A stretch of 64,000 nt of DNA from Spirochaetia bacterium (lineage in GTDB: Bacteria; Spirochaetota; Spirochaetia; SZUA-6; Bin103): NCBI GenBank assembly GCA_965262935.1, contig OZ253572.1:6846445-6910444 (forward strand), in the 5' to 3' direction. Below the pieces are notes generated by a model. That model searched no databases. It was given only the letters and a program-made list of their open reading frames with translations, and was not told the origin of the DNA. Below, in pieces: positions 6,780 to 63,400 of the stretch. Within the stretch, counting starts at the first letter, position 1. Every line of letters starts with the position of its first letter. Made by a program: the position numbers and the translations under genes.

Positions 6780-6853
<74 letters not shown>

Positions 6854-6981
6854 TTAGCGCGTCGCCCGTCCCCACTACCCCGAATCCGCGCGGTGTGCCG
6901 GCCCGCTCCGCGTCCGGCGCCGTCCCGGCGGATCCGGCATGCCCTGGCGGCAAGTGCACCGGCGGCGCGCGGGAGGACGAT

Positions 6982-7683
6982 ATGGCAGTGGTAACCATTT
7001 CCCGGCAGCTCGGCAGCGGCGCCCGCGCCATCGGCATCCGGGCGGCGGAACTGCTCGGCTACGACGTGGTCGACAAGGCGCTGATCACCGAGGTGGCGCG
7101 CGAGGCGCACGTCGATCCCGAAGAGGTAGCCGAGATCGACGAGGTGGAAGAACCCGGCGTGCGCGGCTTTCTGACCCGCTGGTTCACCATGGAGAGCGTG
7201 GCCAACGTACCGTCGGCGTCATCGCTGGTCGATCTGTCCTACCACGGTCCGGGCGGCATCTTCGTGCCGCCGGCCGACGCCGACATCGGCGAGGAGGTGC
7301 ACTTCCTCGACCGCCAGCAGTACCACCGGCTCGTGCAACAGACCATTCACCGGCTCGGCGAGCGCGGGCGGGTGATCATCGTGGGCCGCGGCGGCATGGT
7401 GCTGCTGCGCGACGCGCCGGACACGCTGCGCATACGCGTCGTCGCCTCGGAGGAGAGCCGTGCCGAGCGCTACGCGAGCGAAGAGGGCATCACCTTTCGC
7501 GAGGCCCTGCACCAGGTGCGCATCAGCGACCGGCGCCGGGCCGCGTTCGTGCATCGCAACTACCACGTCGACTGGGACGACGCCGCGCTCTATCACCTGG
7601 TGATCAACTCGGAGAGCACCTCCACCGCCATGGCGGCCTCCGCCATCGCCTCCGCCGTCGGCGCCATGAAGCCGGTCACCTGA
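6982..7683 (+). CDS. cytidylate kinase-like family protein (AAA_33 / Cytidylate_kin2)
   Basis: N-terminal MAVVTISRQLGSGARAIG P-loop, typical of cytidylate-kinase-like domain proteins. The 233-aa length fits. Confidence 0.7.
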   Translation: MAVVTISRQLGSGARAIGIRAAELLGYDVVDKALITEVAREAHVDPEEVAEIDEVEEPGVRGFLTRWFTMESVANVPSASSLVDLSYHGPGGIFVPPADADIGEEVHFLDRQQYHRLVQQTIHRLGERGRVIIVGRGGMVLLRDAPDTLRIRVVASEESRAERYASEEGITFREALHQVRISDRRRAAFVHRNYHVDWDDAALYHLVINSESTSTAMAASAIASAVGAMKPVT

Positions 7684-7758
7684 GCAATTCATGCAATCCC
7701 CGCGCCGCTGCCCCGGCGGCGGCTGTCGGGCTGTCGGGCTGTCGGGTAGCATGTTGAC

Positions 7759-9141
7759 ATGGTGACCTGCGAGCGCACGACGATCCTTCATCACCCACTG
7801 GAGCGCGCGTTCTCCTGGCACGAACGCCCGGCGGCGGTCGAGCGTTCCTTTCCGCCGCGGCAACGCATCGAGACCGTGGCACGCACCGGGACCATTCGCG
7901 ACGGCGACCGCATCACGTTTAGCGCTCGAGTGGGGCCGTTCACGATGCGCTGGACGGTGCAGCACGAAGGCTACCGGCCTCCCGCAGAGTTCGGAGACCG
8001 TCAAGTCGACGGACCCTATCGCTCGATGAACCACCGTCATTTCTTTCGCGCGACCGGGACGGCAAGCTGCGAAATGACCGACCGCGTCCAATGTGAGCCG
8101 GGTAGAATGTTGACACTTCTGGGCCGCAACAGGCTCCAGAGTACCGTGGAACGCAGCCTGGAGTTCCACCATGAGCGGGTGCGCCGCGACCTGGACCGCC
8201 ATGCAACTGGCCCGCCGCAACCCATTCGGGTGCTGATCTCCGGTGCCTCCGGTCTGATCGGCGGCGCGCTGACGGCGTTTCTGGACAGCGGCGGCCATGA
8301 GGTGGTGCGGCTGGTTCGACGTGCTCCGCGGTCCGCCGCGGAGATCGCCTGGGATCCGGCCGCCGGGCAGGTCGACGCGGATGCGCTGGAAGGGTTCGAT
8401 GCAGTGATCCACCTGGCCGGCGAGAACATCGGCGCCGGGCGCTGGACCGCGGCGCGCCGGCAGCGCATCCGGGACAGCCGCGTGGCGTCGACCGCGCTGC
8501 TGTGCGCTGCGCTCGCCGGACTTCGCCGGCCACCCGCGGTGCTGGTGTCGGCGTCGGCGATCGGGTACTACGGCGACGCGGCCGGCTCGGCGGACGAGGC
8601 GGCGCCGGCCGGCACCGGGTTCCTGGCCGAGGTGACGGCCGCCTGGGAGCAGGCCGCCGAGCCGGCGCGGGCAGCGGGCATCCGCGTGGCGCACGCCCGG
8701 CTGGGTCCGGTGCTGAGCCCCGCGGCGGGCATGCTGAAACGGCTGCTGCCGGTGTTCCAGGCCGGAGCCGGCGGCGTGGTCGGCAGCGGCCGGCAGGCGA
8801 TAAGCTGGATCGGGCTCGATGACGCGGTCGGCGCCCTGCATTTTCTGATCAGCAACGGGCAGGCGCACGACGCCTTCAACGTGGTAGCCCCCGAAGCGGC
8901 CACCAACCGCGAGTTCACGCACGCGCTGGCGGCCGTGCTGCGCCGGCCGGCTGTCGCGCGCGTGCCCGGCATCGCCATCCGGCTGCTGCTCGGCGAGATG
9001 GGCGACCAGCTCATCCTCAAGGGCAAGGCCGTGCTCCCGGCACGGCTCACGGAGCTGGGCTTCCGCTGGCTGGAGCCGACCCTGGACGGCGCGCTGCGCT
9101 GGGAGCTGGGCATGCCCGCGGGCGAGAGCCGTCCCGGATAG
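7759..9141 (+). CDS. SRPBCC-domain fused to TIGR01777 (YfcH-like) NAD-dependent epimerase/dehydratase family protein
   Basis: Rossmann motif ISGASGLIGGAL, DUF1731-like C-terminus (VLPARLTELGFRW), and an N-terminal ~150-aa SRPBCC-like segment. Confidence 0.75.
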   Translation: MVTCERTTILHHPLERAFSWHERPAAVERSFPPRQRIETVARTGTIRDGDRITFSARVGPFTMRWTVQHEGYRPPAEFGDRQVDGPYRSMNHRHFFRATGTASCEMTDRVQCEPGRMLTLLGRNRLQSTVERSLEFHHERVRRDLDRHATGPPQPIRVLISGASGLIGGALTAFLDSGGHEVVRLVRRAPRSAAEIAWDPAAGQVDADALEGFDAVIHLAGENIGAGRWTAARRQRIRDSRVASTALLCAALAGLRRPPAVLVSASAIGYYGDAAGSADEAAPAGTGFLAEVTAAWEQAAEPARAAGIRVAHARLGPVLSPAAGMLKRLLPVFQAGAGGVVGSGRQAISWIGLDDAVGALHFLISNGQAHDAFNVVAPEAATNREFTHALAAVLRRPAVARVPGIAIRLLLGEMGDQLILKGKAVLPARLTELGFRWLEPTLDGALRWELGMPAGESRPG

Positions 9142-12671: not shown

Positions 12672-12968
12672 TTAGTCGCGCAACGCCCTGATCTCCGTAA
12701 GCAACTCTGACCTGCTGGTCTGCACCTCTGCTCTGAGCGATTGCTCGGCAGATCGAGCCTCTAATCTGAGAGAGCCGATTTCCACCTTCATGTCAGACCG
12801 CAATACGTCTATATCTGACTCAAGATCCACTCTGAGCCCATCCACGTCATCTCCTAATTCCGTACGGAGGCCGTCCACCTTTTCACCCACTGCGCGTTCT
12901 ACGGCAGTTATATCCTTACGAATACTGTTGAACTGACCGATCAGAAAAAAGATAAACAACACGAACAA
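12672..12968 (-). CDS. hypothetical small protein with N-terminal TM segment and coiled-coil
   Basis: 98-aa ORF in a low-GC islet; hydrophobic N-terminus FVLFIFFLIGQF followed by periodic D/L/R repeats. Confidence 0.35.
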   Translation of the reverse strand: MFVLFIFFLIGQFNSIRKDITAVERAVGEKVDGLRTELGDDVDGLRVDLESDIDVLRSDMKVEIGSLRLEARSAEQSLRAEVQTSRSELLTEIRALRD

Positions 12969-12975
12969 GTCTCCA

Positions 12976-13218
12976 TTACAGTTCCTGTAATTCTCTCAGT
13001 CTATCTACGACCTCTTCTGCTTCGGAGCCACTGATATGCTCAAGCTTTACGACAATTCCACGGCGGCCAGTTTCCAAACCTGCTGTTACCCCGAAGAGTC
13101 CTGCTATCTCTTCTGTGGTAGCGCTTCTATCTGCAACTATACAGGAGTGATCGCCGCTGAGCTTTACGTAGCTACTGATAAACCGTTCTGGTATATCGGG
13201 AAGGGGGGCATTGGTCAC
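12976..13218 (-). CDS. hypothetical small protein (80 aa)
   Basis: Lies directly upstream of 12672..12968 on the same strand in the same low-GC islet. No motif recognised. Confidence 0.3.
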   Translation of the reverse strand: MTNAPLPDIPERFISSYVKLSGDHSCIVADRSATTEEIAGLFGVTAGLETGRRGIVVKLEHISGSEAEEVVDRLRELQEL

Positions 13219-13475: not shown

Positions 13476-14303
13476 CTACCACAGGGTCAGACCGATGATT
13501 CCCACGGGTATCAGGTACAGGGCGAACAGGTGCAGCCGCCCGCGGCGCACGATGCGCAGCAGCACGGTCAGCGCCAGCCAGCCGGCGGCGAACGAAACCA
13601 CCATGCCGGCGGCCATGGCGGGCGCGTCGACGGTGGCCTCCAGGGCGGACAGCTCGGGCAGCGATACCGCCACCGCGCCCAGGATGGCGGGCACCGAGGC
13701 CAGGAAGGAGAAGTCGGCGGCCGTTTCGCGATCCGCCCCGGCCAGCACGCCGACGGATATGGTGGCGCCGGAGCGGGAGATGCCGGGAATCACCGCCAGC
13801 CCCTGAACCACACCGATCAGCAGCGCCCACGGCCAGCGCGGCTGCCATGCAACGCTCGGCGCGGCCTCGGCGCGCGGCCCGGCCATGCCGCGCACGAACG
13901 GGGCGGCGAGCAGCAGCGCCGCGGTGACCAGCAGCATGAAGGAGACGAAGCCCGGCGCGCGCGGCAGCCCGATGGATCCGAGCGCCATGCCGATACCGCC
14001 CGTGACCGCGGTGCAGAGCACGAGCAGCAGCAACAGGCGGCGGTCGTCGGGGCTGCACCGGCGGCGTGCCGGCGGCCGCAGCAGGTCGACGCCGGCGGCA
14101 ATCAGCCGGCCCAGCCGCGCCCGGAACACCACCGCGGTCGCGGCCAGGGTGGACGAGTGCAGCAGAACGTCGAACAACAGCGGCACCTCGCCCACCTCCA
14201 GGATGCCGCGCAGCAGCACCAGGTGCCCGGAACTGGACACCGGCAGGAACTCGGTGATGCCCTGCAGCCCGCCCAGAGCCACTGCCTGCCAGAAGCTCAT
14301 CAT
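13476..14303 (-). CDS. uppP: undecaprenyl-diphosphatase (BacA/UppP)
   Basis: LPVSSSGHL and GISRSGATI signature motifs; 8 predicted TM helices. Confidence 0.9.
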   Translation of the reverse strand: MMSFWQAVALGGLQGITEFLPVSSSGHLVLLRGILEVGEVPLLFDVLLHSSTLAATAVVFRARLGRLIAAGVDLLRPPARRRCSPDDRRLLLLLVLCTAVTGGIGMALGSIGLPRAPGFVSFMLLVTAALLLAAPFVRGMAGPRAEAAPSVAWQPRWPWALLIGVVQGLAVIPGISRSGATISVGVLAGADRETAADFSFLASVPAILGAVAVSLPELSALEATVDAPAMAAGMVVSFAAGWLALTVLLRIVRRGRLHLFALYLIPVGIIGLTLW

Positions 14304-14661
14304 GCGAGTGACGCCGGTGCGAGGTCATTCGCTGCCGACACCCGGGCACCGATCGGCTCGCGGTAGTGGCGCAGGCATCGGCCCGTCGCGGTCAGTTCGG
14401 CGACAAGCGACAGCGGAGGTACGTTGAACTGACTACTCATGGTGATGGGACAGCGTCCTCAAAGATGCTTGCAGTATGTTTCGCGGGAAGTCAGCTCCAC
14501 GTCCAGCGGGCCGGTCGGCCCGGGCGGCGCGTTGGATCGAGGTCCAAGGCACCGCTCAAGAAACGGCGAGCGGGATTTCATCGGGGGGCATACCGGCAGT
14601 GAGTTATGGCAACCAGTAGCTCTTTCAGGTAGTCAATCAGACCACCACCGTAGCGGCTTCT

Positions 14662-15882
14662 CTACCCTGCGGCCTCTTTCAGTGCGTCAACGTCCGCGCG
14701 CAGGGCCTCCAGCTCGGTGCGGTCTGCCTTCGTCGCCGCGAAGTTCTCAACGGCCGCTTGCACGTTCGCGAGTCCGTCCCCGAGCACTTCGGTAACGGAA
14801 TGCTCCAACGAATCCATGCGGGCGTCGATTCCTTCCAGATGCTCGCCCTGGCCTTCCAGACGCCCGTCAATACCTTCCAGACGCCCGTCAATACCTTCCA
14901 GACGCCCGTCAATACCTTCCAGACGCCCGTCGATTCCGTCGAACCGCTCGCCATGGCTCGCCAGCCGCTCGTCAATACCTTCCAGACGCCCGTCGATTCC
15001 GTCGAACCGCTCGCCATGGCTCGCCAGCCGCTCGTCAATACCTTCCAGACGCCCGTCGATTCCGTCGAACCGCTCGCCATGGCTCGCCAGCCGCTCGTCA
15101 ATACCTTCCAGACGCCCGTCGATTCCGTCGAACCGCTCGCCATGGCTCGCCAGCCGCTCGTCAATACCTTCCAGACGCCCGTCGATTCCATCGAACCGCT
15201 CGCCATGGCTATCCAGACGCCCGTCGATTCCATCGAACCGCTCGCCATGGCTGGTCAGCCGCCCGTCGATTCCTTCCAGACGCCCGTCGATTCTGTCGAA
15301 CCGCTCGCCATGGCTCGCCAGCCGCTCGTCAATACCTTCCAGATGCCCGTCGATTCCGTCGAACCGCTCGCCATGGCTCGCCAGCCGCTCGTCAATACCT
15401 TCCAGATGCCCGTCGATTCCGTCGAACCGCTCGCCATGGCTCGCCAGCCGCTCGTCAATACCTTCCAGACGCCCGTCGATTCCGTCGAACCGCTCGCCAT
15501 GGCTCGCCAGCCGCTCGTCAATACCTTCCAGATGCCCGTCGATTCCGTCGAACCGCTCGCCATGGCTCGCCAGCCGCTCGTCGATTCCTTCCAGATGCCC
15601 GTCGATTCCGTCGAACCGCTCGCCATGGCTCGCCAGCCGCTCGTCAATACCTTCCAGACGCCCGTCGATTCCGTCGAACCGCTCGCCATGGCTCGCCAGC
15701 CGCTCGTCAATACCTTCCAGATGCCCGTCGATTCCGTCGAACCGCTCGCCATGGCTCGCCAGCCGCTCGTCGATTCCTTCCAGGCGCTCGCCAATCCCGT
15801 CCAGGCGCGCACCGTGGTCAGCGCGCAAGGCACGCAACTCGCGCAGTACGTCATGGAGCGTTGGCTCGGTTGCTTTACTCAT
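14662..15882 (-). CDS. highly repetitive protein built from fourteen 21-aa (63-nt) tandem repeats, SHGERFDGIDG(H/R)LEGIDERLA
   Basis: The ORF is in frame through the whole array. The N-terminus MSKATEPTLHDVLRELRALRA and the C-terminus DSLEHSVTEVLGDGLANVQAAVENFAATKADRTELEALRADVDALKEAAG are non-repetitive. The heptad-like periodicity suggests a coiled-coil. Confidence 0.6.
   Translation of the reverse strand: MSKATEPTLHDVLRELRALRADHGARLDGIGERLEGIDERLASHGERFDGIDGHLEGIDERLASHGERFDGIDGRLEGIDERLASHGERFDGIDGHLEGIDERLASHGERFDGIDGHLEGIDERLASHGERFDGIDGRLEGIDERLASHGERFDGIDGHLEGIDERLASHGERFDGIDGHLEGIDERLASHGERFDRIDGRLEGIDGRLTSHGERFDGIDGRLDSHGERFDGIDGRLEGIDERLASHGERFDGIDGRLEGIDERLASHGERFDGIDGRLEGIDERLASHGERFDGIDGRLEGIDERLASHGERFDGIDGRLEGIDGRLEGIDGRLEGIDGRLEGQGEHLEGIDARMDSLEHSVTEVLGDGLANVQAAVENFAATKADRTELEALRADVDALKEAAG
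14815..15795. repeat. 63-bp tandem repeat array, about 14 copies plus 21-bp sub-repeats at the 5' end
   Basis: Near-identical units differ mainly by CAT/CGT (His/Arg) and ATG/ACG changes. Confidence 0.9.
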
Positions 15883-16005
15883 CGTTCCAGAATATAGCTC
15901 ACCTGCCACCCACCGTGCCACCCCAGTGACGCCACCGCCAACCCTTCGCCGGCAGTCGCCGCGTGGCGTGCCGCGCCCCACGCGCTACCGCCTGCCGGAA
16001 GCCCA

Positions 16006-16695
16006 TCACGCCTTGAACCCCCGCAGAAGGACTAGGTGGCGCTCGGCGTCCAGGTGCGGCACAGCAAGGCGTATCACCTGCATCCGCAGCATTTCACCCG
16101 CCGCTTCGCGCGCGGCCCTCAGTTCCCGCTGCACGGTCGCCGCAGTGCCCTGGTAAAGGGCAACCGTCGACCGCGCATGCAGGCGCGGCAGCAGATCAGG
16201 CAGCAGGCGGGCCAGCGGCGCCACCGCGCGCCACGTCACTACGTCCACCTGGGCCAGCGCCGCCTCCGCCAGCGGGCGTCCGACCACGGTCAACTCCGTC
16301 AGCACCAACTCGCGGCGCACATGGTTCAGGAACGCCGCCCGCCGGGCGCTGCGTTCCACCAGAATTACCCGCGACCCGGGCAGCGCCAGCGCCAGCGGAA
16401 TACCCGGCAGGCCGGCGCCGCTGCCCACATCCAGCAACGTGGCGCGCGGTTCGATTTCACGTAGCGCCGACACCGCCGCCAGGCTGTCCAGCAAGTGGTG
16501 GGTGATCAGCCGCCGACGATCCGCGTCCACCAGCCGGTACACCGGATTGGCCGCCTCGATCAGCGCGGCGAAGCGCAGCAGCCGGTCACGCAGCTGCCCG
16601 TTGCCGCCCACCCCCAACCGGCGCAGCCCATCGTCGAGCAGCTCCTCATCCGTCAATTTCGCGCACCTCGGCACCACGGTACCCAAAAGTGCCAT
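16006..16695 (-). CDS. rsmG: 16S rRNA (guanine527-N7)-methyltransferase RsmG (GidB)
   Basis: SAM-binding LLDVGSGAGLPGIPLA; overall GidB architecture and length (229 aa). Confidence 0.9.
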   Translation of the reverse strand: MALLGTVVPRCAKLTDEELLDDGLRRLGVGGNGQLRDRLLRFAALIEAANPVYRLVDADRRRLITHHLLDSLAAVSALREIEPRATLLDVGSGAGLPGIPLALALPGSRVILVERSARRAAFLNHVRRELVLTELTVVGRPLAEAALAQVDVVTWRAVAPLARLLPDLLPRLHARSTVALYQGTAATVQRELRAAREAAGEMLRMQVIRLAVPHLDAERHLVLLRGFKA

Positions 16696-17173
16696 GCCCT
16701 CCTACACTGTGCACATGGAAAACGAAACCGACCTCACCGGCCTCGATCCGGCGGCGGCCCGCGAGTACGTACACGGCTACATCACCGCGCTGCGCCTTGC
16801 CGCGAGGAAGCGCCAGCGCCTGGAGACGGCGCTCAAGACCTGGGAGGAGCGCGTCAAACACGCCGCGGAAGCCGGCAACACCACGTTGCGCGACGCCGCG
16901 CGCACCGAGATGGAGCGCGTCCAGGACGGCCTCGGCCGCATTGCCGCCGAGGAGGCGGATCTGAGCGCCCAGGTGGAAGTGATGAAGCGCCACCTGAAGA
17001 GCATGCGCCCCGCGACCGCCATCAACGTCGACGCCGAGCAGCTCCTCGCCCAGCTCCAGTCCATCACCGGCGAGCCGGACACCCTCAAGTCCGATCTCGA
17101 CCGCCTCGGCACCCAACAGCGCGCCGACCAGGAACTCGCCGCCCTCAAGCGCCGCATGGCGAAAGGCGAGTAA
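16694..17173 (+). CDS. hypothetical coiled-coil protein (159 aa), divergent from rsmG
   Basis: ATG at 16694 overlaps the rsmG start on the opposite strand. The translation is Ala/Glu/Arg-rich with helical periodicity; no known motif. Confidence 0.45.
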   Translation: MPSYTVHMENETDLTGLDPAAAREYVHGYITALRLAARKRQRLETALKTWEERVKHAAEAGNTTLRDAARTEMERVQDGLGRIAAEEADLSAQVEVMKRHLKSMRPATAINVDAEQLLAQLQSITGEPDTLKSDLDRLGTQQRADQELAALKRRMAKGE

Positions 17174-17752: not shown

Positions 17753-17971
17753 TCACCCGGCCCCGTCCCGTCGCTTGCGCCGGATTTGCTTGTCGGCGGT
17801 CACGGCAACCCACTGCCGACTCGCGACGTTAGGTATCCACCTTACGTCGGGATCACCAGGATTGATGTCACATGCGTTGCGGTAAGTCACCGCGTGCAGG
17901 TCTTTCTCCCGCAGCAAATCGACGAGATTCGGACCGTATGTCTCGTCCACAGAGAACGTGAGAGGCGTCAC
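17753..17971 (-). CDS. DUF5615-family PIN-like protein (putative toxin)
   Basis: 72 aa; overlaps the upstream DUF433 gene by 4 nt, the classic TA arrangement. Confidence 0.55.
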   Translation of the reverse strand: MTPLTFSVDETYGPNLVDLLREKDLHAVTYRNACDINPGDPDVRWIPNVASRQWVAVTADKQIRRKRRDGAG

Positions 17972-18672
17972 GCAGCTATGTTGCGAGTCCAGTCCTCGTA
18001 AGAGATCGCGCGGGTCACTTCGGGCACAGACCGTTCGTATATCGCGGCGAGCTGCTCTGCCGTTTCACCGGCGCACTTGCGTTTGTAGATGATCTCCGTG
18101 GGGATGCCGGTGCCGGGGATTCGTGGCTGCCCGAACCTGATCCCCGGGTCTACTTCCGCCGCCACGATTGATTTGTTGTTCGGGTCCGGAATCCGCAACC
18201 TGTCGGGAAGCCCATCTACTCCTCTGTCGACCTGCTTCATGCACTGAAGCAACTGCTCCTTCATCTCGAATTGGCCGGCTCGGCTAAGGTTGAGGTACTC
18301 GCCCGTCTTCTCAACAAACAGGTCTGAGCGATCAGTAAGGAGATTCAAGTCCGCGAGAGGATGATCAGTTCGTTCGGTCTTCCGGAGATACTCGATGGCG
18401 CTTCGCACGTTCTTGAATTGTACCTCGTGGAGTTTGCCCAGCGACGAAAGCACATACAACTCCACCAGATTCTGAAACGACAGGTGCGGTGGATCAGCCG
18501 GCACGATGGGTGGCCAGAACTGCTTGCCGTCGCTGGTCATATAGCGCGCGCCGCGTGTCCAGGACCGCACCGTCGATACCGGGCGCCTGATGATTCGTGC
18601 TGCCTCGGTTGGTGTGTACACAGGGATCTCAGCAGGACGCTTGCCGCCGTGAATGTCCGTCATCGTGGGCAC
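17968..18672 (-). CDS. DUF433 domain protein with extended N-terminus (putative antitoxin/partner of DUF5615)
   Basis: C-terminal DPGIRFGQPRIPGTGIPTEIIYKRKCAGETAEQLAAIYERSVPEVTRAISYE matches DUF433. Confidence 0.6.
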   Translation of the reverse strand: MPTMTDIHGGKRPAEIPVYTPTEAARIIRRPVSTVRSWTRGARYMTSDGKQFWPPIVPADPPHLSFQNLVELYVLSSLGKLHEVQFKNVRSAIEYLRKTERTDHPLADLNLLTDRSDLFVEKTGEYLNLSRAGQFEMKEQLLQCMKQVDRGVDGLPDRLRIPDPNNKSIVAAEVDPGIRFGQPRIPGTGIPTEIIYKRKCAGETAEQLAAIYERSVPEVTRAISYEDWTRNIAA

Positions 18673-28287: not shown

Positions 28288-28377
28288 CCTACACCACGGA
28301 GCACACGGCGGCTACGGTGTACTCTGACGGCGGACTGCCTGGCGCATCAGCCATAGCAGCGGCTGGCGCCTCGGCGC

Positions 28378-28917
28378 TTGGCTCTGCTTGCCACCGCGGG
28401 GATGCCGGCCTCACCGCTCGTCTCTCCGGCGCCGGAGCTGGCACCCGGCGTGTTCCCTGACGGCGGACTGCCTGGCGCATCAGCCGAAGCAGCGGCTGGC
28501 GCCTCGGCGGATGCCTCTGCTGCCGACGCGGAGATGCCGGTCTCGCCGCTCGTCTCTCCGGCGCCGGAGCCGGCATCTGGCGTGTATTCTGACGGCGGCC
28601 CGAGCGGCGTCTCAACCGGGGCGGCGGCGCACACAGCCCGCGATTCTGTCCACGGCCGCCACCAATCCCCGCCGCGGCGCCACATTACTGCGGCTGTCCG
28701 GCGCCACGTATGGCAATGCGACGGTGGACGCTGCTGTTATCGCGATCCGCTCACCGGGCGCCGCTGCACCTCTTCCCATCTGCTCCAGATCGACCACCTG
28801 TTGCCGGTCGCCCAGGGCGGTGGCGCGAACCTGTTCAACTTACGCCTTCTCTGCTTTGCCCATCGCAGCTTGCGCCACGGCCATGGGTCGGCTGTGCCGC
28901 CGGAACGCCCCACGTAG
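28378..28917 (+). pseudogene. HNH endonuclease C-terminal fragment preceded by about 129-bp tandem repeats
   Basis: RRHVWQCDGGRCCYRDPLTGRRCTSSHLLQIDHLLPVAQGGGANLFNLRLLCFAHRSL is a complete HNH motif. 28310..28600 holds 2.3 copies of a ~129-bp unit. There is no N-terminal domain. Confidence 0.5.
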
Positions 28918-35607: not shown

Positions 35608-36532
35608 ATGAGTTTCACGGGCGCGACTAAGAGAGTTGTTCTCCGCCAAATCGGAGGGGGCACTTGCCATGGATAGGCAGTGTAGCAGTCAACGCGTAGG
35701 CGCGCTACCCTTTGGGGGGCGCGGGGGCGCGGATTCGGAAACGATGGAAACAAGCTGCCCGAGCGTAGCTTCGGAGTCGTCAGATCAGCTTCCCAATGCA
35801 GTCTCGCCGCGACGCTCCGGTAGCCGTTGCGAAGTTGTTCCACCGATCGCTACATTCGTGACGCGACACCGCGGCGCTCGTCGGTCTCCAACTCCGTCAA
35901 ACGCTGCAGCGTGACCCGTCCCACCTGACGCAAGACGTCGTCGTTGGCATGCTTCTCAGCTTGTTCCGGTCTACAATCCGGCGCCGACAATCCGGCGCCG
36001 TGGTGGACATTCAACGGACGATATGAGTATTGCTCCTATCATGGCATTAGGAATCGCAGCGACGGGTGGCCGGGGACGTTCCGGCACCTGTCCGGCTTGG
36101 AGGCCGGGGGTCACGCGCCGTCGGCTGGCGACGCGGGGACGTCGACCGATGGTTGGAGGCTCTGCCGAAGGCGTAGGCCGCCGTCGTGGGCGTGCCGGGA
36201 CCGGAGGGAAACCCCATCCGGCAACGCGGCAACCACCGAGTCGGCACGACAGTTATTCGCGGAAACAACCCAAAACCGCCAACAGGAAACTAGTGGGGAT
36301 CAAGCGATCACTGCCGGGTACTCATAACCGTTGGAGCGGAAGGCATGCTTAAGCTGTACTGGGGTGACGCCAAAGCCTGAGCGGGTTGGCGGCGGAGGGC
36401 TTCGAAGGAGAGGGCCAGCGGGCCGCCGCTGCGGGGGGAGCCGGGGGTGCCGGCTCAAGGACGGGGAGCCCGAGAAGCCGCGGTCCCGGAACTGCCACGA
36501 GCCGAGGCTTAGTCGACAGGGTGTTTTCATAC

Positions 36533-39500
36533 ATGGGCGCAAGGAATTACGATGACGGCGTGGCGCAGCCGTTTTTCGAACAACCGATCCTGAATTCGCC
36601 GTATGAATACCCGGCGCGGCACTGGGAACTGGACGAGGACCGGCAACCCACCAACCAGATCGTCGACCGTCGGCGTACCGTATCGTTCATCACGCCGATT
36701 CCCGCCGCCCGCAAGCAACGCGCGGCTCAGCGCGAGCTGGGTGTGGATGATGCCCGCGGCACGGCGGACGAGGACGGTCAGCAATACGAACTGATGAGGA
36801 TGATCGAGAGCGTGCGCCACAGCGTGAACGAGTGGCGCCGGCTGCCCCGAGCCCGGTGGCGGGTTACCGCGGAGACCGCCCGCCTGCTCCATCATTGGCG
36901 CCACCACCAGTTCAGCGACATCCGTCCATTCTTCTGCCAGGTCGAGGCGGTGGAGACCGTGATCTGGCTGACCGAGGTAGCCGCCAGCGCCGGACGCGAC
37001 GGGCGGCAGTTCGTCCAGCGGCTGCAGGAGGCGAACGACCAAGCCAACCCCGGCCTCCCGCGGCTGGCACTCAAACTCGCCACCGGCGCCGGCAAGACGA
37101 CGGTGATGGCGATGCTGATCGCGTGGCAGACGGTCAACGCGGTGCGCCATCCGGGCAGCCAGCGATTCACGCGCGGCTTCCTGGTAGTGACCCCCGGCCT
37201 GACGATCCGCGACCGGCTGCGCGTGCTGCAGCCCAACGACCCGGACAGCTACTACCAGAGCCGCGAACTGGTGCCGCGCGACATGCTCGGCGATCTGCAC
37301 CGCGCCAACATCGTCATCACCAACTACCACGCCTTCATGCCGCGTGAGACGCAGGACATCTCAAGCGGTGGACGCGCCCTGCTGCAGGGGCGCGGCCCGG
37401 AGCTGCACACGCTGGAGACCGAGGGCCAGGTGCTGCAGCGGGTCATGCCCGGCCTGATGGGCATGAAGAACATCATGGCATTCAACGACGAAGCCCATCA
37501 CTGCTACCGCGAGAAGCCCGCGCAGAAGAGCGACGAGGCCAGACTGACGGCAGACGACCGCCGGGAGGCCAAGAAGAACAGCGAAGCCGCTCGGGTATGG
37601 ATTTCCGGCCTCGAAGTGGTGCAGCGCAGGCTGAGTCTGAGCAGGGTGCTCGATCTTTCGGCCACGCCATTCTTCCTGCGCGGCTCCGGCTACGCGGAGG
37701 GCACGCTGTTCCCCTGGACAATGAGCGACTTCTCGCTGATGGACGCGATCGAGTGCGGCATCGTCAAGCTGCCGCGCGTGCCGGTGGCGGACAACATCCC
37801 CAGTGGCGAGATGCCCACGTTTCGGAACCTGTGGGAGCACATCGGCACGAAGATGCCACGAAAGGGGCGCGCCAAGTCCGCGCTGCTCGACCCGCTGAGC
37901 ATTCCCACACGGTTGAAGACCGCCCTCGAAGCGCTCTATGGCCACTACCAGAAGATCTTCGACCAGTGGCGCGAAACGGGCATTCAAGCGCCTCCGTGCT
38001 TCATCGTCGCGTGCAACAACACGGCCACCTCGAAACTGGTCTACGACTACATCTCCGGGTTTCATCGCCAACATGAGGACGGCTCCTCTTCGCTCGAGAA
38101 CGGAAGGCTGGAGTTGTTTCGGAACTTCGACGAATACGGCCACCCGCTCGCCAGACCGCACACCCTGCTGATCGACAGCGAGCAGCTCGACTCCGGGGAA
38201 GGACTCGGCCGGGACTTCCGGGTCGCCGCGAGCGACGAGATCGAGCGCTTCCGTCGCGAGATCGTCGCGCGCACCGGCGACCGCCGCCAGGCCGAAAGCC
38301 TCTCCGACCAGGACCTGTTGCGCGAAGTGATGAACACCGTCGGCGTCGCGGGCCGGCTCGGCGGCTCCACCCGCTGCGTGGTGTCGGTCTCGATGCTCAC
38401 CGAGGGCTGGGACGCGCGCACCGTCACCCACATCCTCGGAGTGCGCGCGTTCGGCACCCAGCTTCTGTGCGAGCAGGTGGTGGGCCGCGCTCTGCGCCGC
38501 CAGTCCTACGATCTGAACGAAGAGGGCCTGTTCAACGTCGAGTACGCGGACGTGCTCGGCATCCCGTTCGACTTCACCGCCCAGCCGGTCGCCGCCAGGC
38601 AGCCGAAGCCGCGCGAGACGGTACCGGTCCGGGCCATCACCCCGGATCGGGACGCCTGCGAGATTCGCTTTCCGCGCGTCCAGGGATACCGCGTGGAACT
38701 GCCGGAGGAACACGTCGACGCGAAGTTCGGCCAGGACTCGACCCTGGTCCTCACCCCGGACATCGTCGGCCCTTCCGTCACGCACAATGCCGGCATCATC
38801 GGCGAGGGCGTCGACCTGAACCTGATCCACCGCCGGGATCTGCGCCCTGCCACGCTGGTCTACCATCTCACCAAGACCCTGCTGGAGAAACACTGGCGCG
38901 CGCCCGATCAGGAGCCGAAGCTGCACCTGTTCGGTCAACTCAAGCGAGTCACCCGCCGCTGGCTGACCGATCACCTGGTCTGCAACGGTGGCACCTACCC
39001 CGCTCAACTCATGTACCAGGAGCTGGCCGACCAGGCGTGCACACGCATCACGCGCGGAATTGTGGCGCGGCATCTCGGGGAGCGCCCGGTCACCGCGGTG
39101 CTGGATCCCTACAACCCGACCGGCTCCACGATCCACGTCAACTTCACCACCTCGAAGCAGCCCCGCTGGCAAACCGACGCCCGCCTGTGCCACGTGAACT
39201 GGGTGGTCTGCGACAGCGAGTGGGAGGCGGAGTTCTGCCGCTTCGTCGAGTCGCAGCCGCAGGTCCACGCTTACGTGAAGAACCACGGCCTCGGGCTGGA
39301 GGTTCCCTACCGGTACGGCTCCGAGGCGCGCACCTACCTCCCCGACTTCATCGTGCTGGTGGACGATGGCCGCGGCGAGGATGATCTGCTCCACCTCGTG
39401 GTCGAGATCAAGGGCTACCGCCGCGAGGACGCCAAGGAAAAGAAGGCCACCATGGACACCTACTGGGTGCCGGGCATCAACCGCTCCGGTGCCTACGGCC

Positions 39501-39607
39501 GCTGGGCCTTCGCAGAGTTCACCGACGTGTATACGATTGGCGACGAATTTGCCGCCGCGACCGGGCTCGTGAATGTCGATGCCGACAAGAAAAGGATTGC
39601 TGGATAG
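36533..39607 (+). CDS. res: type III restriction-modification restriction subunit (Res, SF2 helicase + endonuclease)
   Basis: N-terminal QPFFEQPILNSPYEYPARHWELD, a hallmark of type III Res. Walker A ATGAGKT, DEAH-box-like FNDEAHHCY, motif VI SMLTEGWDARTVTHILGVRAF. Confidence 0.9.
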   Translation: MGARNYDDGVAQPFFEQPILNSPYEYPARHWELDEDRQPTNQIVDRRRTVSFITPIPAARKQRAAQRELGVDDARGTADEDGQQYELMRMIESVRHSVNEWRRLPRARWRVTAETARLLHHWRHHQFSDIRPFFCQVEAVETVIWLTEVAASAGRDGRQFVQRLQEANDQANPGLPRLALKLATGAGKTTVMAMLIAWQTVNAVRHPGSQRFTRGFLVVTPGLTIRDRLRVLQPNDPDSYYQSRELVPRDMLGDLHRANIVITNYHAFMPRETQDISSGGRALLQGRGPELHTLETEGQVLQRVMPGLMGMKNIMAFNDEAHHCYREKPAQKSDEARLTADDRREAKKNSEAARVWISGLEVVQRRLSLSRVLDLSATPFFLRGSGYAEGTLFPWTMSDFSLMDAIECGIVKLPRVPVADNIPSGEMPTFRNLWEHIGTKMPRKGRAKSALLDPLSIPTRLKTALEALYGHYQKIFDQWRETGIQAPPCFIVACNNTATSKLVYDYISGFHRQHEDGSSSLENGRLELFRNFDEYGHPLARPHTLLIDSEQLDSGEGLGRDFRVAASDEIERFRREIVARTGDRRQAESLSDQDLLREVMNTVGVAGRLGGSTRCVVSVSMLTEGWDARTVTHILGVRAFGTQLLCEQVVGRALRRQSYDLNEEGLFNVEYADVLGIPFDFTAQPVAARQPKPRETVPVRAITPDRDACEIRFPRVQGYRVELPEEHVDAKFGQDSTLVLTPDIVGPSVTHNAGIIGEGVDLNLIHRRDLRPATLVYHLTKTLLEKHWRAPDQEPKLHLFGQLKRVTRRWLTDHLVCNGGTYPAQLMYQELADQACTRITRGIVARHLGERPVTAVLDPYNPTGSTIHVNFTTSKQPRWQTDARLCHVNWVVCDSEWEAEFCRFVESQPQVHAYVKNHGLGLEVPYRYGSEARTYLPDFIVLVDDGRGEDDLLHLVVEIKGYRREDAKEKKATMDTYWVPGINRSGAYGRWAFAEFTDVYTIGDEFAAATGLVNVDADKKRIAG

Positions 39608-42574
39608 ATGGCGAAGCGCCGGACGCGCAAGAAACCGATCGAAGTAACGTCCATTACCCACGACGAGGCGTCGCGCCGGAACATCCCCACGGCCGAGTAC
39701 CGGTCGGTGATGGAAAAGGGCGATCAGAGCCCCATCCAGGTGGCCTACCAGCGCCGCAACCGCGACCTGGATCCGCAGCTCGTGTGGCGCGGCAAGGACG
39801 AGCAGGACTGGTCCGACCTCGTGGTGCAGGCGCCGCCGCTGTTCATCCAGGAGAAGGTGCACCCCAAGGTGCTGATCGACGACCTCCTGCGGCGCAGCAA
39901 GGAGGGGCAACAAGCAGCGCACGCCCAACTCGACCTGTTCGCCGACTTCAACGGCCTGCCGGACGACAACGCCCGCACCGAGTTCTACCGACACGACGCC
40001 AACTGGTCCAACCGCATGATCCTCGGCGACAGCCTGCAGGTAATGGCCTCCTTGGCCGAGCGTGAAGGGCTGCGCGGCAAGGTGCAGTGCATCTACCTCG
40101 ACCCGCCCTACGGCATCAAGTTCAACTCCAACTTCCAGTGGTCCACCACCAGCCGCGACGTGAAGGACGGCAAGGCAGAGCACATCACTCGCGAACCCGA
40201 GCAAGTCAAGGCCTTCCGCGACACTTGGCGTGACGGCATCCACTCCTATCTGACGTATCTACGTGATCGGCTGACGGTAGCACGTGATTTGCTTACCGAA
40301 AGCGGTAGTATATTTGTCCAAATCGGCGACGAGAATGTACATCGGGTAAGGGCACTGTTAGATGAAGTCATGGGACAGGATAACTTCGTGGCACAAATTG
40401 CTGCTACCAAGACCGCCGGACAGACAGATGCTCTCTTGCCGTCTTTGTTTGATACACTCCTGTGGTATAAGAGGAGTTCAGAGCGCTGCAAATTCCGACG
40501 TCTCTTTCGGGACAAGGGTGTTGGACAAGATGAAATTGGACAATACTACTTCGTTCAACTGAGTGATGGTACACGGAGCCGGCTGACTGAACGAGAGACA
40601 CTTTCCGGTCATGGTCTTGAACAGGGATCTCCGTTTCGCAGTTCCGATATCTCTAGCAACAAACCCTATAGCCTTGGTCGTCTACCATTTGAGTTCGAAG
40701 GCAGGGTATTTCTTCCCCCTGCAGGTCGTTACTGGACGCACAGTCCGGACGGTCGAGAACGGTTAAGGAAAGCCGACAGGTTGATCGCGATGGGAAAGAA
40801 TATTCGGTTCGTCGGTTTTCTGCAAGATGATCCCGTTTCAACGATTAGCAACCAATGGACTGACACTGGGATCAGCGGCTTCGCAGCCGACAAGGTTTAT
40901 GTCGTCCAGACCAGCCCGAAGTTAATTGAGCGGTGCATCCTGATGGCCACCGATCCTGGCGACCTTGTCTTGGACCCAACTTGTGGCTCAGGAAGCACGG
41001 CCTATGTCGCCGAGCAATGGGGACGGCGCTGGATTACCATCGATACCTCCCGCGTGGCTTTGGCTCTGGCCCGCTCCCGCGTCATGGGTGCACGTTATCC
41101 ATACTATCTGCTCACGGACAGCACGGCGGGCCGGCAGAAGGAAGCAGATATTACGCAGACGATCACGATGAAAGGGCTTGCGGGCCGCGACATCAGGCAG
41201 GGCTTCGTATACGAGCGTGCCACCCACGTCACTCCGAGGTTAATCGCCAACAACGCCGAGATCGACGTGATCTGGGAGCGGTGGCAGGAGACGCTGGAGC
41301 GGCTTCGGGCGGAACTGAACGGCGCGCTTGGTCGCGCGTGGGAGGAGTGGGAGGTCCCGCGAGAGGCTGGCGAGCCGTGGCCCGAGCCGGCGACGGCAGC
41401 GTGGAAACGGTTGCAGTCGGCCCAGTCCGATGCGCAGAGAGCCGACGCACTGTTGGCTTTGAACCACGCTCTGCGCCGCGACTACACCCTTGACGATGTC
41501 CCCGGCCAGCCGCGCGACCCGTGGGACGCGGTCCCCCGAACCGACCTGCACCGCCGCTGGTGGGAGGCGCGCATCGCGCGGCAGAAGGAGATCGATGCCT
41601 CCATCGCCGCCAAGGCGGACTTCGAGTACCTGTACGACAAGCCCTACGAGGATCGGGGCACCGTCCGCGTCGCCGGCCCGTTCACGGTGGAGAGCCTGGC
41701 GCCGCACCGCACGCTCGGCGTCGACGAGAATGACGAACTGATCGACCATCTCGCCGAGACCAAGACCGGCTACGACGGGCAGCAGGAATTCGCGACCATG
41801 ATCCTGGAGCACCTGAACACGTCGGGCGTCCAGCAGGCGCACCGGGAGGACCGCATCTCCTTCACCGCGCTCACCCCGTGGCCTGGTGACCTGATCTGCG
41901 CCGAGGGGCGCTACGTCGAAGGTGACGTGGACACCGGGACCGAACGCCGTGCCGGGATCTTCATCGGCCCGGAGTTCGGCACCGTTGCCCGCCCCGACCT
42001 GGTGGCCGCCGCCCTCGAAGCCGCCGACGCCGACTTCGACGTGCTGATCGCCTGCGCGTTCAGCTACGAGGCACACGCCACCGAGTTCAGCAAACTCGGC
42101 CGCATCCCGATTCTCAAGGCGCGTATGAACGCCGACCTGCACATGGCCGGCGACCTGAAGAACACCGGCAAGGGCAACCTGTTCGTGATCTTCGGCGAGC
42201 CGGACATCGAGATCATCCCGGTCCAGGACAACGCCACTCAGGCGTGCCAGATCCAGGTCAAGGTCAACGGCGTGGACGTGTTCCACCCCAACACCGGCGA
42301 AATCCGCAGCGACGGCCCGGACGGCATCGCCTGCTGGTTCGTCGACACCGACTACAACGAGGAGAGTTTCTTCGTCCGCCACGCCTACTTCCTCGGCGCC
42401 AACGACCCCTACAAGGCGCTCAAGACGACCCTCAAGACGGAGATCCACCGCGACGCCTGGGAAACCCTGCACAGCGACACCTCCCGCCCCTTCGACCGCC
42501 CCGCCTCCGGCCGCATCGCCGTCAAGGTCATCAACCACCTCGGCGACGAAGTAATGAAAGTCTTCCGCGTGTGA
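39608..42574 (+). CDS. mod: type III R-M N6-adenine DNA methyltransferase (Mod) with long C-terminal extension
   Basis: IYLDPPYGI (motif IV DPPY) and LVLDPTCGSGSTAYVA (motif I). Its ATG follows the res stop by 0 nt (TAGATG). The low-GC middle segment at 40250..41100 is the probable target-recognition domain. Confidence 0.9.
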   Translation: MAKRRTRKKPIEVTSITHDEASRRNIPTAEYRSVMEKGDQSPIQVAYQRRNRDLDPQLVWRGKDEQDWSDLVVQAPPLFIQEKVHPKVLIDDLLRRSKEGQQAAHAQLDLFADFNGLPDDNARTEFYRHDANWSNRMILGDSLQVMASLAEREGLRGKVQCIYLDPPYGIKFNSNFQWSTTSRDVKDGKAEHITREPEQVKAFRDTWRDGIHSYLTYLRDRLTVARDLLTESGSIFVQIGDENVHRVRALLDEVMGQDNFVAQIAATKTAGQTDALLPSLFDTLLWYKRSSERCKFRRLFRDKGVGQDEIGQYYFVQLSDGTRSRLTERETLSGHGLEQGSPFRSSDISSNKPYSLGRLPFEFEGRVFLPPAGRYWTHSPDGRERLRKADRLIAMGKNIRFVGFLQDDPVSTISNQWTDTGISGFAADKVYVVQTSPKLIERCILMATDPGDLVLDPTCGSGSTAYVAEQWGRRWITIDTSRVALALARSRVMGARYPYYLLTDSTAGRQKEADITQTITMKGLAGRDIRQGFVYERATHVTPRLIANNAEIDVIWERWQETLERLRAELNGALGRAWEEWEVPREAGEPWPEPATAAWKRLQSAQSDAQRADALLALNHALRRDYTLDDVPGQPRDPWDAVPRTDLHRRWWEARIARQKEIDASIAAKADFEYLYDKPYEDRGTVRVAGPFTVESLAPHRTLGVDENDELIDHLAETKTGYDGQQEFATMILEHLNTSGVQQAHREDRISFTALTPWPGDLICAEGRYVEGDVDTGTERRAGIFIGPEFGTVARPDLVAAALEAADADFDVLIACAFSYEAHATEFSKLGRIPILKARMNADLHMAGDLKNTGKGNLFVIFGEPDIEIIPVQDNATQACQIQVKVNGVDVFHPNTGEIRSDGPDGIACWFVDTDYNEESFFVRHAYFLGANDPYKALKTTLKTEIHRDAWETLHSDTSRPFDRPASGRIAVKVINHLGDEVMKVFRV

Positions 42575-43347: not shown

Positions 43348-44013
43348 CTATCGCCCGCCCCAACATTGCTGTGAGATTTGCGCCAAGTCATGTCGCAGGG
43401 TTTGCGGTGTGTGACGGTGATGTAGCTCTCTTAGTGTCTTTCCGTGGCAACACTTCACTAAGCGTCCGCTTCCGCACGGGCACAATCTATGTCCGTCATA
43501 TCCGTACTCGCTAAGGAAGCGGATTACTTCTACTGCCTCCTTCTCACATCTCAGGTCGAAGGCGTCCATGTAGAATTGTACTATCCCGGCAGAACCATGT
43601 TTTTGTTCCCCGAAAGGATGAACATCATGTTTCTCCCAATAGCGATATCCGTAAAGGAAGGGGACCAAAAGACGGTTTACGAACCCCAAAAGAGTCGGCT
43701 CGTTGTGAAATATGATGCGCGCCTTAATGGGAACGCAGAGGCAGAGCGTTCTGTCTGGATTTACGTGTTCGTACTCTTTAATTGAACCGCCGGTTTCCCT
43801 GGCTATGGGCAAGTCGTCTGGATACGATTCCGGTATGCACAATTCAACGTCGAAACAGGTCACAATGGACTCGAGTCCACCATAGTGTGCCCTAAACGGC
43901 AAAGCACCAGACAGGGCGGTTCCACCAACTTTCCTTTGTACTCTGGTCAGCTCTCGGTGGGTTTGCTGCAAGTCTCCGATCTGGCGCGACAATTCCTCGC
44001 TCAAACCCTCCAC
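43348..44013 (-). CDS. E2-like ubiquitin-conjugating-fold protein (short Cap2-like) with C-terminal SEC-C zinc motif
   Basis: EHVNPDRTLCLCVP matches the E2 HPN...C(L) catalytic signature. C-terminal CPCGSGRLVKCCHGK is a SEC-C motif. Overlaps the CD-NTase gene by 13 nt. Confidence 0.65.
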   Translation of the reverse strand: MEGLSEELSRQIGDLQQTHRELTRVQRKVGGTALSGALPFRAHYGGLESIVTCFDVELCIPESYPDDLPIARETGGSIKEYEHVNPDRTLCLCVPIKARIIFHNEPTLLGFVNRLLVPFLYGYRYWEKHDVHPFGEQKHGSAGIVQFYMDAFDLRCEKEAVEVIRFLSEYGYDGHRLCPCGSGRLVKCCHGKTLRELHHRHTPQTLRHDLAQISQQCWGGR

Positions 44014-62910: not shown

Positions 62911-63220
62911 GGAGCAGAGATACACCAAGGTTTCCTCTTTCAAAATTCGCTACTCAAACGGATTTCCGCAATCCTCAACGTCGAGAAGATTCCTGCCCGG
63001 TTTGATTCTACGCAATCGCGGAACTTTTTGACCTTCTTTTCGAGATCGGTTCCTACCCTAATGGCAAACAGAGGAACATGAAAATCCGTCTGCATCCAGA
63101 ACCTATCCTCCGAATGCTATGGGTGGCCCCGAATCGATTGGACAGGTAGACGGGTAGTATAGAGTGCATTCCGTTGGCTATCAACCCGCCCCCTCCTGGT
63201 CGAGATGACCAAGCGGCGGG

Positions 63221-63400
63221 GAAGGGGGTAGGGTCCAGGGAAGGGGGTAGGGTCCAGGGAAGGGGGTAGGGTCCAGGGAAGGGGGTAGGGTCCAGGGAAG
63301 GGGGTAGGGTCCAGGGAAGGGGGTAGGGTCCAGGGAAGGGGGTAGGGTCCAGGGAAGGGGGTAGGGTCCAGGGAAGGGGGTAGGGTCCAGGGAAGGGGGT
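63221..63400. repeat. 20-bp minisatellite, 9 perfect copies of GAAGGGGGTAGGGTCCAGGG
   Basis: Perfect tandem array. The unit length is not a multiple of 3, so overlapping ORFs (PLPWTLPPSLDPTPFPGPYP periodicity) are probably artefacts. Confidence 0.9.

Follow-up and report, generated by a model that had tools for sequence, protein, structure and literature searches.

A length-variable heptad-repeat gene in an uncultured spirochete lineage, predicted to encode a coiled-coil rod

Background

The streptococcal M proteins and the alpha-C protein of group B Streptococcus form size variants by in-frame gain or loss of repeat units; they are surface antigens with signal peptides and LPXTG anchors. In NeuO, a phage-borne O-acetyltransferase of Escherichia coli K1, a variable heptanucleotide repeat is reportedly translated into N-terminal coiled-coil heptads. 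ZapB and the Braun lipoprotein Lpp, of approximately 60-100 amino acids (aa), are essentially single helices that form oligomeric rods or spacers, and the length of Lpp sets a cellular distance. Here we describe a tandem-repeat gene at positions 14662-15882 of a 64,000-nucleotide (nt) stretch of contig OZ253572.1 from a Spirochaetia bacterium (the whole stretch is hereafter the window). The gene lies between rsmG and uppP and is very probably a real gene for a length-variable coiled coil.

The locus resembles those of the M proteins and alpha-C in its near-identical DNA repeats and in-frame size variants between close strains, and M protein is also a long coiled coil. Those proteins are exported and wall-anchored, whereas the spirochete protein has no export or anchor signal, shares no sequence with them and has no host-interaction context. 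As in NeuO, the copy number of a DNA repeat would set the length of a coiled-coil stalk; the 7-nt unit of NeuO is said also to switch the frame on and off, and its stalk to sit on an enzyme, whereas the spirochete unit is 21 nt, changes mostly in frame and carries no catalytic domain. The protein is predicted to be a solitary single-helix protein in the manner of ZapB and Lpp, to which short members of its family give sub-threshold matches (ZapB, E = 0.0056; LPP, E = 0.011), but there is no significant homology, and the family has end motifs of its own and neither a lipobox nor a division-gene context. Repeat instability of coiled-coil genes with a variable number of tandem repeats (VNTR) is known; the protein belongs to a small undescribed family, and nothing points to a new mechanism.

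Results

Organization of the repeat gene

The open reading frame (ORF) runs on the minus strand from an ATG to a TAG stop at 14662-14664 and encodes 406 aa. Tandem Repeats Finder reported two 63-bp arrays, one at 14898-15225 (5.2 copies, 97% matches, score 607) and one at 15212-15801 (9.4 copies, 95% matches, score 1033), so that the units are 95-97% matched across 14.6 copies. Further rows, at periods of 42 and 105 bp, refer to this DNA again. The periodicity of both arrays is far beyond chance, and the fundamental period is 21 bp, which is one heptad. The 7-residue sub-periodicity recognized in the initial annotation of this DNA extends through the entire protein, which consists of exactly 58 heptads in a single register.

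That annotation had described fourteen near-perfect copies of the 21-aa unit SHGERFDGIDG(H/R)LEGIDERLA. Its coordinates and unit are right and a count of about 14 is defensible, but the array is less regular than described. Eleven 63-bp units are exact (seven at aa 43-189 and four at aa 225-308) and three are variant (DHGARLDGIGERLEGIDERLA at aa 22, SHGERFDRIDGRLEGIDGRLT at aa 190 and SHGERFDGIDGRLEGIDGRLE at aa 309); a 42-bp unit interrupts the series, and three further 21-bp repeats, each a GIDGRLE heptad, follow the last unit. The supposed alternation of His and Arg was not seen: the first block reads H R H H R H H, and every later unit has R. Nor do the units differ essentially by CAT/CGT, since synonymous GGAATC/GGTATT and a GAG/GGG (Glu/Gly) difference also occur. 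Unique termini do flank the array, 21 aa at the N-terminus and 49 aa at the C-terminus, the latter following two degenerate heptads. No paralog of the gene was found elsewhere in the window. The parts of the gene and the adjoining features are collected in Table 1.

Table 1. Positions in the window of the repeat gene, its segments and adjoining features
Feature	Position	Strand	Basis
Complete coiled-coil gene	14662..15882	-	ORF and translation, codon statistics, dN/dS
Unique N-terminus, aa 1-21 (MSKATEPTLHDVLRELRALRA), bears family motif EPTLxDVL	15820..15882	-	Identical in L001-L004
Degenerate first 21-aa unit, aa 22-42 (DHGARLD GIGERLE GIDERLA)	15757..15819	-	
Block 1, seven exact 63-bp units, aa 43-189, g-position order H R H H R H H	15316..15756	-	
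Variant unit, aa 190-210 (SHGERFD RIDGRLE GIDGRLT)	15253..15315	-	
Odd 42-bp (14-aa) unit, aa 211-224 (SHGERFD GIDGRLD), shifts the 63-bp register between blocks	15211..15252	-	
Block 2, four exact 63-bp units, aa 225-308, all Arg-type	14959..15210	-	
SHGERFD followed by four GIDGRLE heptads, aa 309-343, 21-bp tandem repeat	14854..14958	-	
C-terminal region, aa 344-406: degenerate heptads GQGEHLE GIDARMD, then conserved family domain SLEHSVTEVLGDGLANVQAAVENFAATKADRTELEALRADVDALKEAAG	14665..14853	-	End-to-end matches in representative search, alignments, profile search
Antisense shadow ORF, 479 aa, Pro/Ser/Arg-rich, not a gene	14717..16156	+	GC content at second codon positions (GC2) 0.79, codon log-odds -0.53 per codon
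Spacer of 123 bp between rsmG and repeat gene, TATATT 8 nt before ATG	15883..16005	-	Sequence
rsmG (16S rRNA methyltransferase G), upstream neighbour, same strand	16006..16695	-	Pfam GidB, E = 2e-33
uppP/bacA (undecaprenyl-diphosphatase), downstream neighbour, same strand	13476..14303	-	Pfam BacA, E = 6e-61

Coding strand and annotation

The minus strand is the coding strand and the plus-strand ORFs are shadows, because codon statistics, the ratios of nonsynonymous to synonymous substitution rates (dN/dS) and the homologs all agree. The GC content of the minus frame by codon position (0.80/0.42/0.71) resembles that of the Pfam-supported neighbours rsmG, uppP and ftsK, and its codon log-odds are the best of the six frames (0.276 per codon; the plus-strand ORFs give 0.071 and -0.531). 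In this frame most substitutions between orthologs are synonymous, and homologs were found for the minus-frame product only; SHGERFDGIDGR is a peptide of that product. In the unique ends, dN/dS was 0.16-0.33 in five of the six ortholog pairs and 0.67 in one pair with small counts, compared with 0.20 for rsmG and 0.25-0.35 for uppP. The ends are thus under purifying selection as strong as that on the neighbouring housekeeping genes.

Gene callers had nevertheless annotated the antisense ORF on L001-L004, four syntenic contigs from metagenomes (positions 6799-7854, opposite the orthologous gene). The long repetitive orthologs of three other contigs, L009, L010 and L012, are absent from a collection of 15 billion proteins. 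Exact look-ups of the 406-aa protein returned no match because of these two circumstances, the antisense gene calls and the missing repetitive orthologs. The family is systematically mis-annotated or unannotated, and is effectively invisible or misnamed in databases.

Variation in array length

Contigs L001-L004 agree with the window at 98.3-100% identity in rsmG, uppP and both spacers, three of the four at 99.7% or more. Their arrays measure 1179, 1227, 1170 and 1171 nt, compared with 1221 nt in the window, and the order of His-type, Arg-type and short units is different in each. The gene is intact in L001 (392 aa, 56 heptads) and in L003 (389 aa). The initial annotation had expected protein length to vary between strains, and this comparison, with a different array on every contig, agrees with it; the accompanying worry that the repeat count was collapsed in the assembly is unsupported, since independent assemblies agree on the approximate size of the array. 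Length was also expected to change in frame by 63 bp. Most steps do keep the frame, but they are of 21, 42 and 63 bp and not of 63 bp alone.

Copy number that differs between close strains, together with near-identical DNA units, places the locus among VNTR genes. Surface exposure and on/off expression switching, the marks of a contingency locus, were not found: the protein has no signal peptide or anchor, and the 21-bp unit keeps the frame.

More distant relatives extended the range of lengths. At approximately 94-96% nucleotide identity in rsmG and uppP, the repeat protein has 315 aa in L009 and L011 and 329 aa in L010; the FtsK protein is identical in all three, and L009 differs from L010 by exactly one 14-aa (42-bp) unit. 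In L016, at the same level of identity, the array is almost absent and the protein is approximately 119 aa, and the 90% cluster of this protein contains 133- and 161-aa forms with two to five SHGEHLE GIDGRLA units. The search of representative proteins added a 105-aa ortholog, P0278, so that ortholog lengths in close relatives run from 105 to 406 aa. In L012 (approximately 84-86% identity in the same two genes) a 272-aa protein is built from a different 14-aa unit, S(H/Q)GERLD GIDARLD. It follows that units are homogenised genome by genome, a case of concerted evolution.

In L014 and L015 the repeat gene is absent and rsmG directly adjoins uppP. L013 has kept the spacers and, of the first ten codons, a degenerate remnant, a sign that the gene was lost. 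The gene is dispensable, and the array changes far more readily than its surroundings.

A small family defined by its two ends

Full-length searches returned mainly heptad look-alikes with unrelated ends, for example Nonomuraea hypothetical proteins at 35% identity; other look-alikes carry transmembrane anchors or nuclease-like or glycosylase-like domains. A scan of genome contigs likewise found 32-40% identical look-alikes in metagenome-assembled genomes (MAGs) of Actinobaculum, Methylomirabilia, Elarobacter and Gemmatimonadales. A search of 1.84 billion representative proteins with the C-terminal 83 aa found relatives matching end to end (E = 1e-14 to 1e-38). A profile of seven of these relatives recovered 49 proteins, all of 51-198 aa and all metagenomic; none of the 49 has a protein-family name (two carry generic JGI labels only) or a Pfam domain on the core.

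In a 27-member alignment, E6, P7, T8, L9, D11 and V12 are invariant or nearly so, within the pattern M-x-x-x-EPTLRDVL. The window protein begins with MSKATEPTLHDVL, in agreement with the motif M-x3-5-EPTLxDV, whose columns are at least 90% conserved in the 27 sequences. The other end has the consensus GLxxVxAAVExFAxTKADRxEVxxLRADVxxLKRAAGE at the protein terminus, and the window protein has GLANVQAAVENFAATKADRTELEALRADVDALKEAAG there with the stop codon directly after it. A variable heptad stalk joins these two conserved ends. Other members have lengthened it independently, P0281 with GQGKLEA x8, P0429 with DGRLDSV repeats, P0279 with a 21-aa unit and L020 with RLSGVDE RLDRIDE units. We therefore assign the gene, on the similarity of both ends, to a small undescribed family of solitary proteins of 80-190 aa, of which the window protein is the longest member seen.

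Several named families matched the full protein and were set aside. The scores above threshold arise because the repeats are summed, and orthologs with few repeats fall below every cut-off. For Pfam DUF7310 (PF23991) the full protein scored 57.3 bits against a cut-off of 40 and few-repeat orthologs 15.4-21.2 bits, so the match is driven by the array. The 70-residue NCBIfam profile for GTA head formation, RCAP_rcc01685 (NF048001), reached 58.3 bits against 50 as a sum only, with no single stretch passing; short orthologs gave no match and L020 gave 22.7 bits. XhlA (PF10779) summed to 47.1 bits, again with no stretch passing alone, and the protein has no hydrophobic segment for the C-terminal membrane part that this family requires. 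The SpiroCoCo models (NF047514/NF047515) scored 39.2 bits against a cut-off of 125 bits (C-terminal domain model); our literature search found no paper on SpiroCoCo or DUF7310. Membership was also rejected for DUF16, SMC/Rad50, ssr2422 and PHROG matches, whose scores scale with repeat number and vanish in short orthologs. DUF7310, XhlA, DUF16 and the 'RLDGIDxRLDGID' proteins share with the window protein an h-D-G-h-D-x-R flavour of heptad that is common in metagenomic and actinobacterial proteins, but the similarity is confined to the repeats and the ends are different. Two lessons for annotation follow from the locus: an antisense shadow ORF was called on four contigs, and repeats attract misleading matches above threshold (DUF7310, GTA head formation).

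Predicted structure and heptad chemistry

The protein is predicted to be cytoplasmic, very acidic and essentially one long alpha-helix. AlphaFold2, run on the single sequence of the 406-aa monomer, placed helices at residues 9-219, 227-383 and 388-405 with a mean predicted local distance difference test score (pLDDT) of 73.7. The helix break at aa 220-226 falls at the odd 14-aa unit and probably reflects the chain folding back on itself in the model. The 105-aa ortholog, for which a 27-sequence alignment was used, was predicted as one continuous helix over residues 9-104 with a pLDDT of 91.7. By computation, a fully extended rod would measure approximately 59 nm for the 406-aa protein and 15 nm for the 105-aa form.

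Over the 48 heptads of the array, position a is Leu in 33, Phe in 14 and Met in one, while position d is Ile in 32, His in 15 and Gln in one. Position e is Asp in 31 and Gly in 17, and position g is Arg in 42 and His in six. An unbroken heptad periodicity with a hydrophobic residue at every a position (L/F/M in 48/48) is canonical for a coiled coil. The suggestion in the initial annotation of an extended helical or coiled-coil rod therefore agrees with the prediction, both in the nearly complete helix of the model and in the heptad positions. The g-Arg and e-Asp residues are complementary, which fits parallel pairing, and the protein probably forms a parallel homo-oligomeric coiled-coil rod. 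In GCN4-pLI, Leu at a and Ile at d favours a tetramer, and by analogy a tetramer would be favoured here.

The isoelectric point is 4.6, the grand average of hydropathy (GRAVY) is -0.77, and the 406 residues include 23 His; the net charge would be approximately -55 at pH 7 and -34 at pH 5.5. No hydrophobic segment usable as a signal peptide or membrane anchor was found in the protein. Foldseek against the PDB gave nothing below E = 0.9, and the sequence search of solved structures gave only low-complexity matches to apolipoprotein A-IV (E = 1e-7), reovirus sigma-1 and proteins of the tropomyosin type.

Discussion

We propose that the stalk was amplified in this lineage into near-identical units of 21, 42 and 63 bp. 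Long identical stretches at 21-bp spacing would let unequal recombination or slippage realign the array in steps of 21, 42 or 63 bp, with whole heptads gained or lost. Most such changes would leave the reading frame and the coiled-coil register intact and alter the length of the rod alone. Frame and heptad phase would be preserved because the homology is itself 21-bp periodic, with no selection needed. At the protein level the result would be a rod in which an expandable spacer joins two ends that are conserved and under selection, the ends acting as functional contacts. The expansion as such may well be neutral, since relatives have lost the gene and even near-clonal strains have different arrays.

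By analogy with small self-associating bacterial coiled coils, our best guess is a dispensable structural or scaffolding rod. The whole reading, namely a genuine gene for a length-variable, homo-oligomeric and dispensable coiled-coil rod with a structural or scaffold role, seems to us to be probable, with considerable room for error. Its last element is the most tentative, and a spacer or scaffold role of the stalk, taken by itself, is possible rather than probable.

Several observations weigh against this reading. In L002 and L004, remnants of 16, 32 and 34 nt from 21- or 42-nt units break the frame inside the array, and in L003 a 9-nt deletion leaves a 12-nt remnant that keeps the frame and breaks the heptad register. 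Given these breaks, constraint on the array may not be strong. The protein is 17% glycine, a residue that stands at many c, e and f positions and there disfavours a stable helix. The structure predictions cover monomers only, and we infer the homo-oligomeric state. Neither a consensus sigma-70 promoter nor a terminator was found for the gene. Distant members of the family have no recurring partner gene, and their neighbourhoods vary, including restriction-modification genes, a glycosyltransferase and transposases.

The frameshifts in L002 and L004 are indistinguishable from consensus errors, and the array defects could be either consensus artefacts from mixed strains or real frameshift alleles. 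The deficits of 5, 8 and 10 nt occur at array junctions (L002 7500-7760, L004 7500-7560), always after the 14-aa unit or before the terminal heptads, where the alleles also differ.

The alternative that survives best is neutral, runaway growth of the repeat, in which the ancestral protein of approximately 100 aa has a function, the 300 extra residues are slippage products tolerated without any adaptive role, and the differences in length between strains are mutational noise that precedes decay of the gene. The different array in every near-identical strain would be expected from it, as would the junctions that break frame or register and the loss or absence of the gene in L013, L014 and L015. 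A phase kept automatically by 21-bp homology is moreover no proof of selection. We nevertheless regard this account as rather doubtful. The purifying selection on the ends equals that on neighbouring housekeeping genes; the ORF is open across 0.8-1.2 kb of repeats in the window, L001, L003 and L009-L012; and several lineages have expanded the stalk independently, which suggests that long stalks are at least not harmful.

A second alternative concerns the histidines in the core. Because d is His in 15 of the 48 array heptads (every third core d) and g is His in six, the protein might be a metal-binding or pH-switchable 'histidine zipper', whose His layers coordinate Zn, Ni or Cu or become protonated. 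Zn and Cu are bound by designed three-stranded coiled coils that have His layers in the core, and the protein, with 23 histidines, would shift in net charge from approximately -55 to -34 between pH 7 and pH 5.5. His or Gln also stands at d in orthologs built from other units (SHGEHLE in P0272, S(H/Q)GERLD in L012), and the motif xHxxRFDxhDxRL recurs in unrelated actinobacterial and metagenomic proteins (P0001, P0005). On the other hand, distant members P0282 and P0433 use I/V/L at d without core His, and the window annotation contains no metal-handling genes nearby, so we consider a histidine zipper unlikely. An equally speculative extension combines both ideas: the proteins would be length-tunable cytoplasmic 'ruler' or 'His-zipper' rods whose end motifs dock partners, whose gain or loss of heptads resets the distance between them, and whose His layers (15 at d, six at g) sense pH or Zn/Ni. 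If true, an uncultured spirochete would possess a structural parameter that is inherited and can be adjusted quickly.

It is a little less likely still that the protein is a protectant of the hydrophilin or late embryogenesis abundant (LEA) type, disordered in solution and forming amphipathic helices when dried or at membranes, so that protection would increase with repeat number. Hydrophilins are defined by more than 6% Gly and high hydrophilicity, and LEA group 3 proteins by an 11-mer amphipathic repeat. The composition fits (Gly 17%, GRAVY -0.77), as do the tandem repeats, the pLDDT of only 73.7 for the long form and the match to apolipoprotein A-IV as best solved structure by sequence (E = 1e-7). 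The strict period of 7/21 instead of 11, with a clean Leu/Ile seam and g-Arg/e-Asp pairs, is not the 11-mer of LEA proteins and apolipoproteins, and the short ortholog is predicted to be helical at very high confidence.

We find it very improbable that the protein acts as a variable antigen, exposed at the surface or secreted in the manner of streptococcal M protein, or as a phage-receptor decoy, with shuffling of the repeats as a means of escaping recognition. Near-identical DNA repeats with arrays that differ between strains would suit such a role, the window is rich in defence and toxin-antitoxin genes, and the families that match the repeats include PHROGs of unknown function and XhlA-like ones. 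The protein has no signal peptide, lipobox, transmembrane segment or anchor, however, its N-terminus (MSKATEPTLHDV) is polar, in keeping with the overall GRAVY of -0.77, and the matches to phage families grow with the number of repeats and are gone in short orthologs.

Finally, that the plus-strand ORF at 14717-16156 is the real gene or that the array length is an assembly artefact, as the gene calls on L001-L004 and the messy, possibly erroneous junctions of L002 and L004 might suggest, can practically be discarded given the GC2 of 0.79 and negative codon log-odds of that ORF, the mostly synonymous substitutions and exclusive homologs of the minus frame, and the five independent assemblies that give arrays of 1170-1227 nt.

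The locus provides a natural length series of one coiled coil (105, 119, 133, 161, 272, 315, 329, 389, 392 and 406 aa) over roughly species-level divergence. This series shows how 21-bp-periodic DNA lets a helical rod, as predicted, change length, usually in frame and in register. It could serve the study of coiled-coil length, stability and core-histidine chemistry.

Genomic neighbourhood and other features of the window

The window has a G+C content of 62%. Its FtsK protein shares 92% identity with one recorded under 'MAG: Spirochaetaceae bacterium' and 73% with that of Marispirochaeta, and related contigs are as long as 5-7 Mb; the host is therefore an uncultured Spirochaetaceae lineage whose genome is large. 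The ftsK gene lies further downstream of uppP. The 123-bp spacer upstream of the repeat gene contains no clear Shine-Dalgarno sequence. In L009 and L016 this rsmG-side spacer is 98.4% identical to that of the window, even though the flanking genes there are only 94-96% identical. A candidate sigma-54 promoter upstream of the gene (TGGCAC...GTGGCA) was dropped by eye since its -12 element is a misfit. Rfam gave no match in or near the repeat gene, and no inverted repeats were found at it.

An ORF of 46 aa (MSSQFNVPPLSLVAELT...) lies just upstream of uppP and overlaps its start (window approximately 14304-14444, minus strand; L001 8214-8354). Conservation of the spacer around it extends to L013, where the repeat gene is missing; the ORF could be a leader peptide or reflect a mis-set uppP start. 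Two small ORFs of 98 and 80 aa lie between uppP and ftsK (12672-13218, minus strand). The 98-aa product has an N-terminal transmembrane segment and a coiled coil, with a weak CCDC90-like/DUF1640 match (29.6 bits, below the cut-off), and the 80-aa product has no family match. Gene calls of approximately 96 aa occupy the matching position in L001 and L002, a correspondence by position only, but in L009-L015 uppP directly adjoins ftsK.

A conserved 152-aa coiled-coil protein is encoded divergently from rsmG (entry 16439-17173, plus strand, and 17753-18672, minus strand). It has a weak PspA/IM30-like match (E = 0.036 in the window, also weak in L014), and a DUF433/PIN_10 toxin-antitoxin-like pair adjoins its gene. 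An apparent defence island spans 36386-56484. It includes a BPTD_3080-family restriction endonuclease (36386-39607, 1312 bits) with an adjoining DNA methyltransferase (39608-42574). On the minus strand it also encodes a cGAS/CBASS-like nucleotidyltransferase (44001-45185) and a PtuA/retron-effector-like ATPase (54514-56484).

Two other tandem repeats were noted in the window. A 132-bp unit is repeated 2.3 times at 28317-28618 with 84% matches. At 63219-63400, a perfect 19-bp unit (GGGAAGGGGGTAGGGTCCA) is repeated 9.6 times with 100% identity across copies; its period is not a multiple of 3, it is overlapped only by shadow-like ORFs, and its plus strand carries G-runs that make it G-quadruplex-prone.

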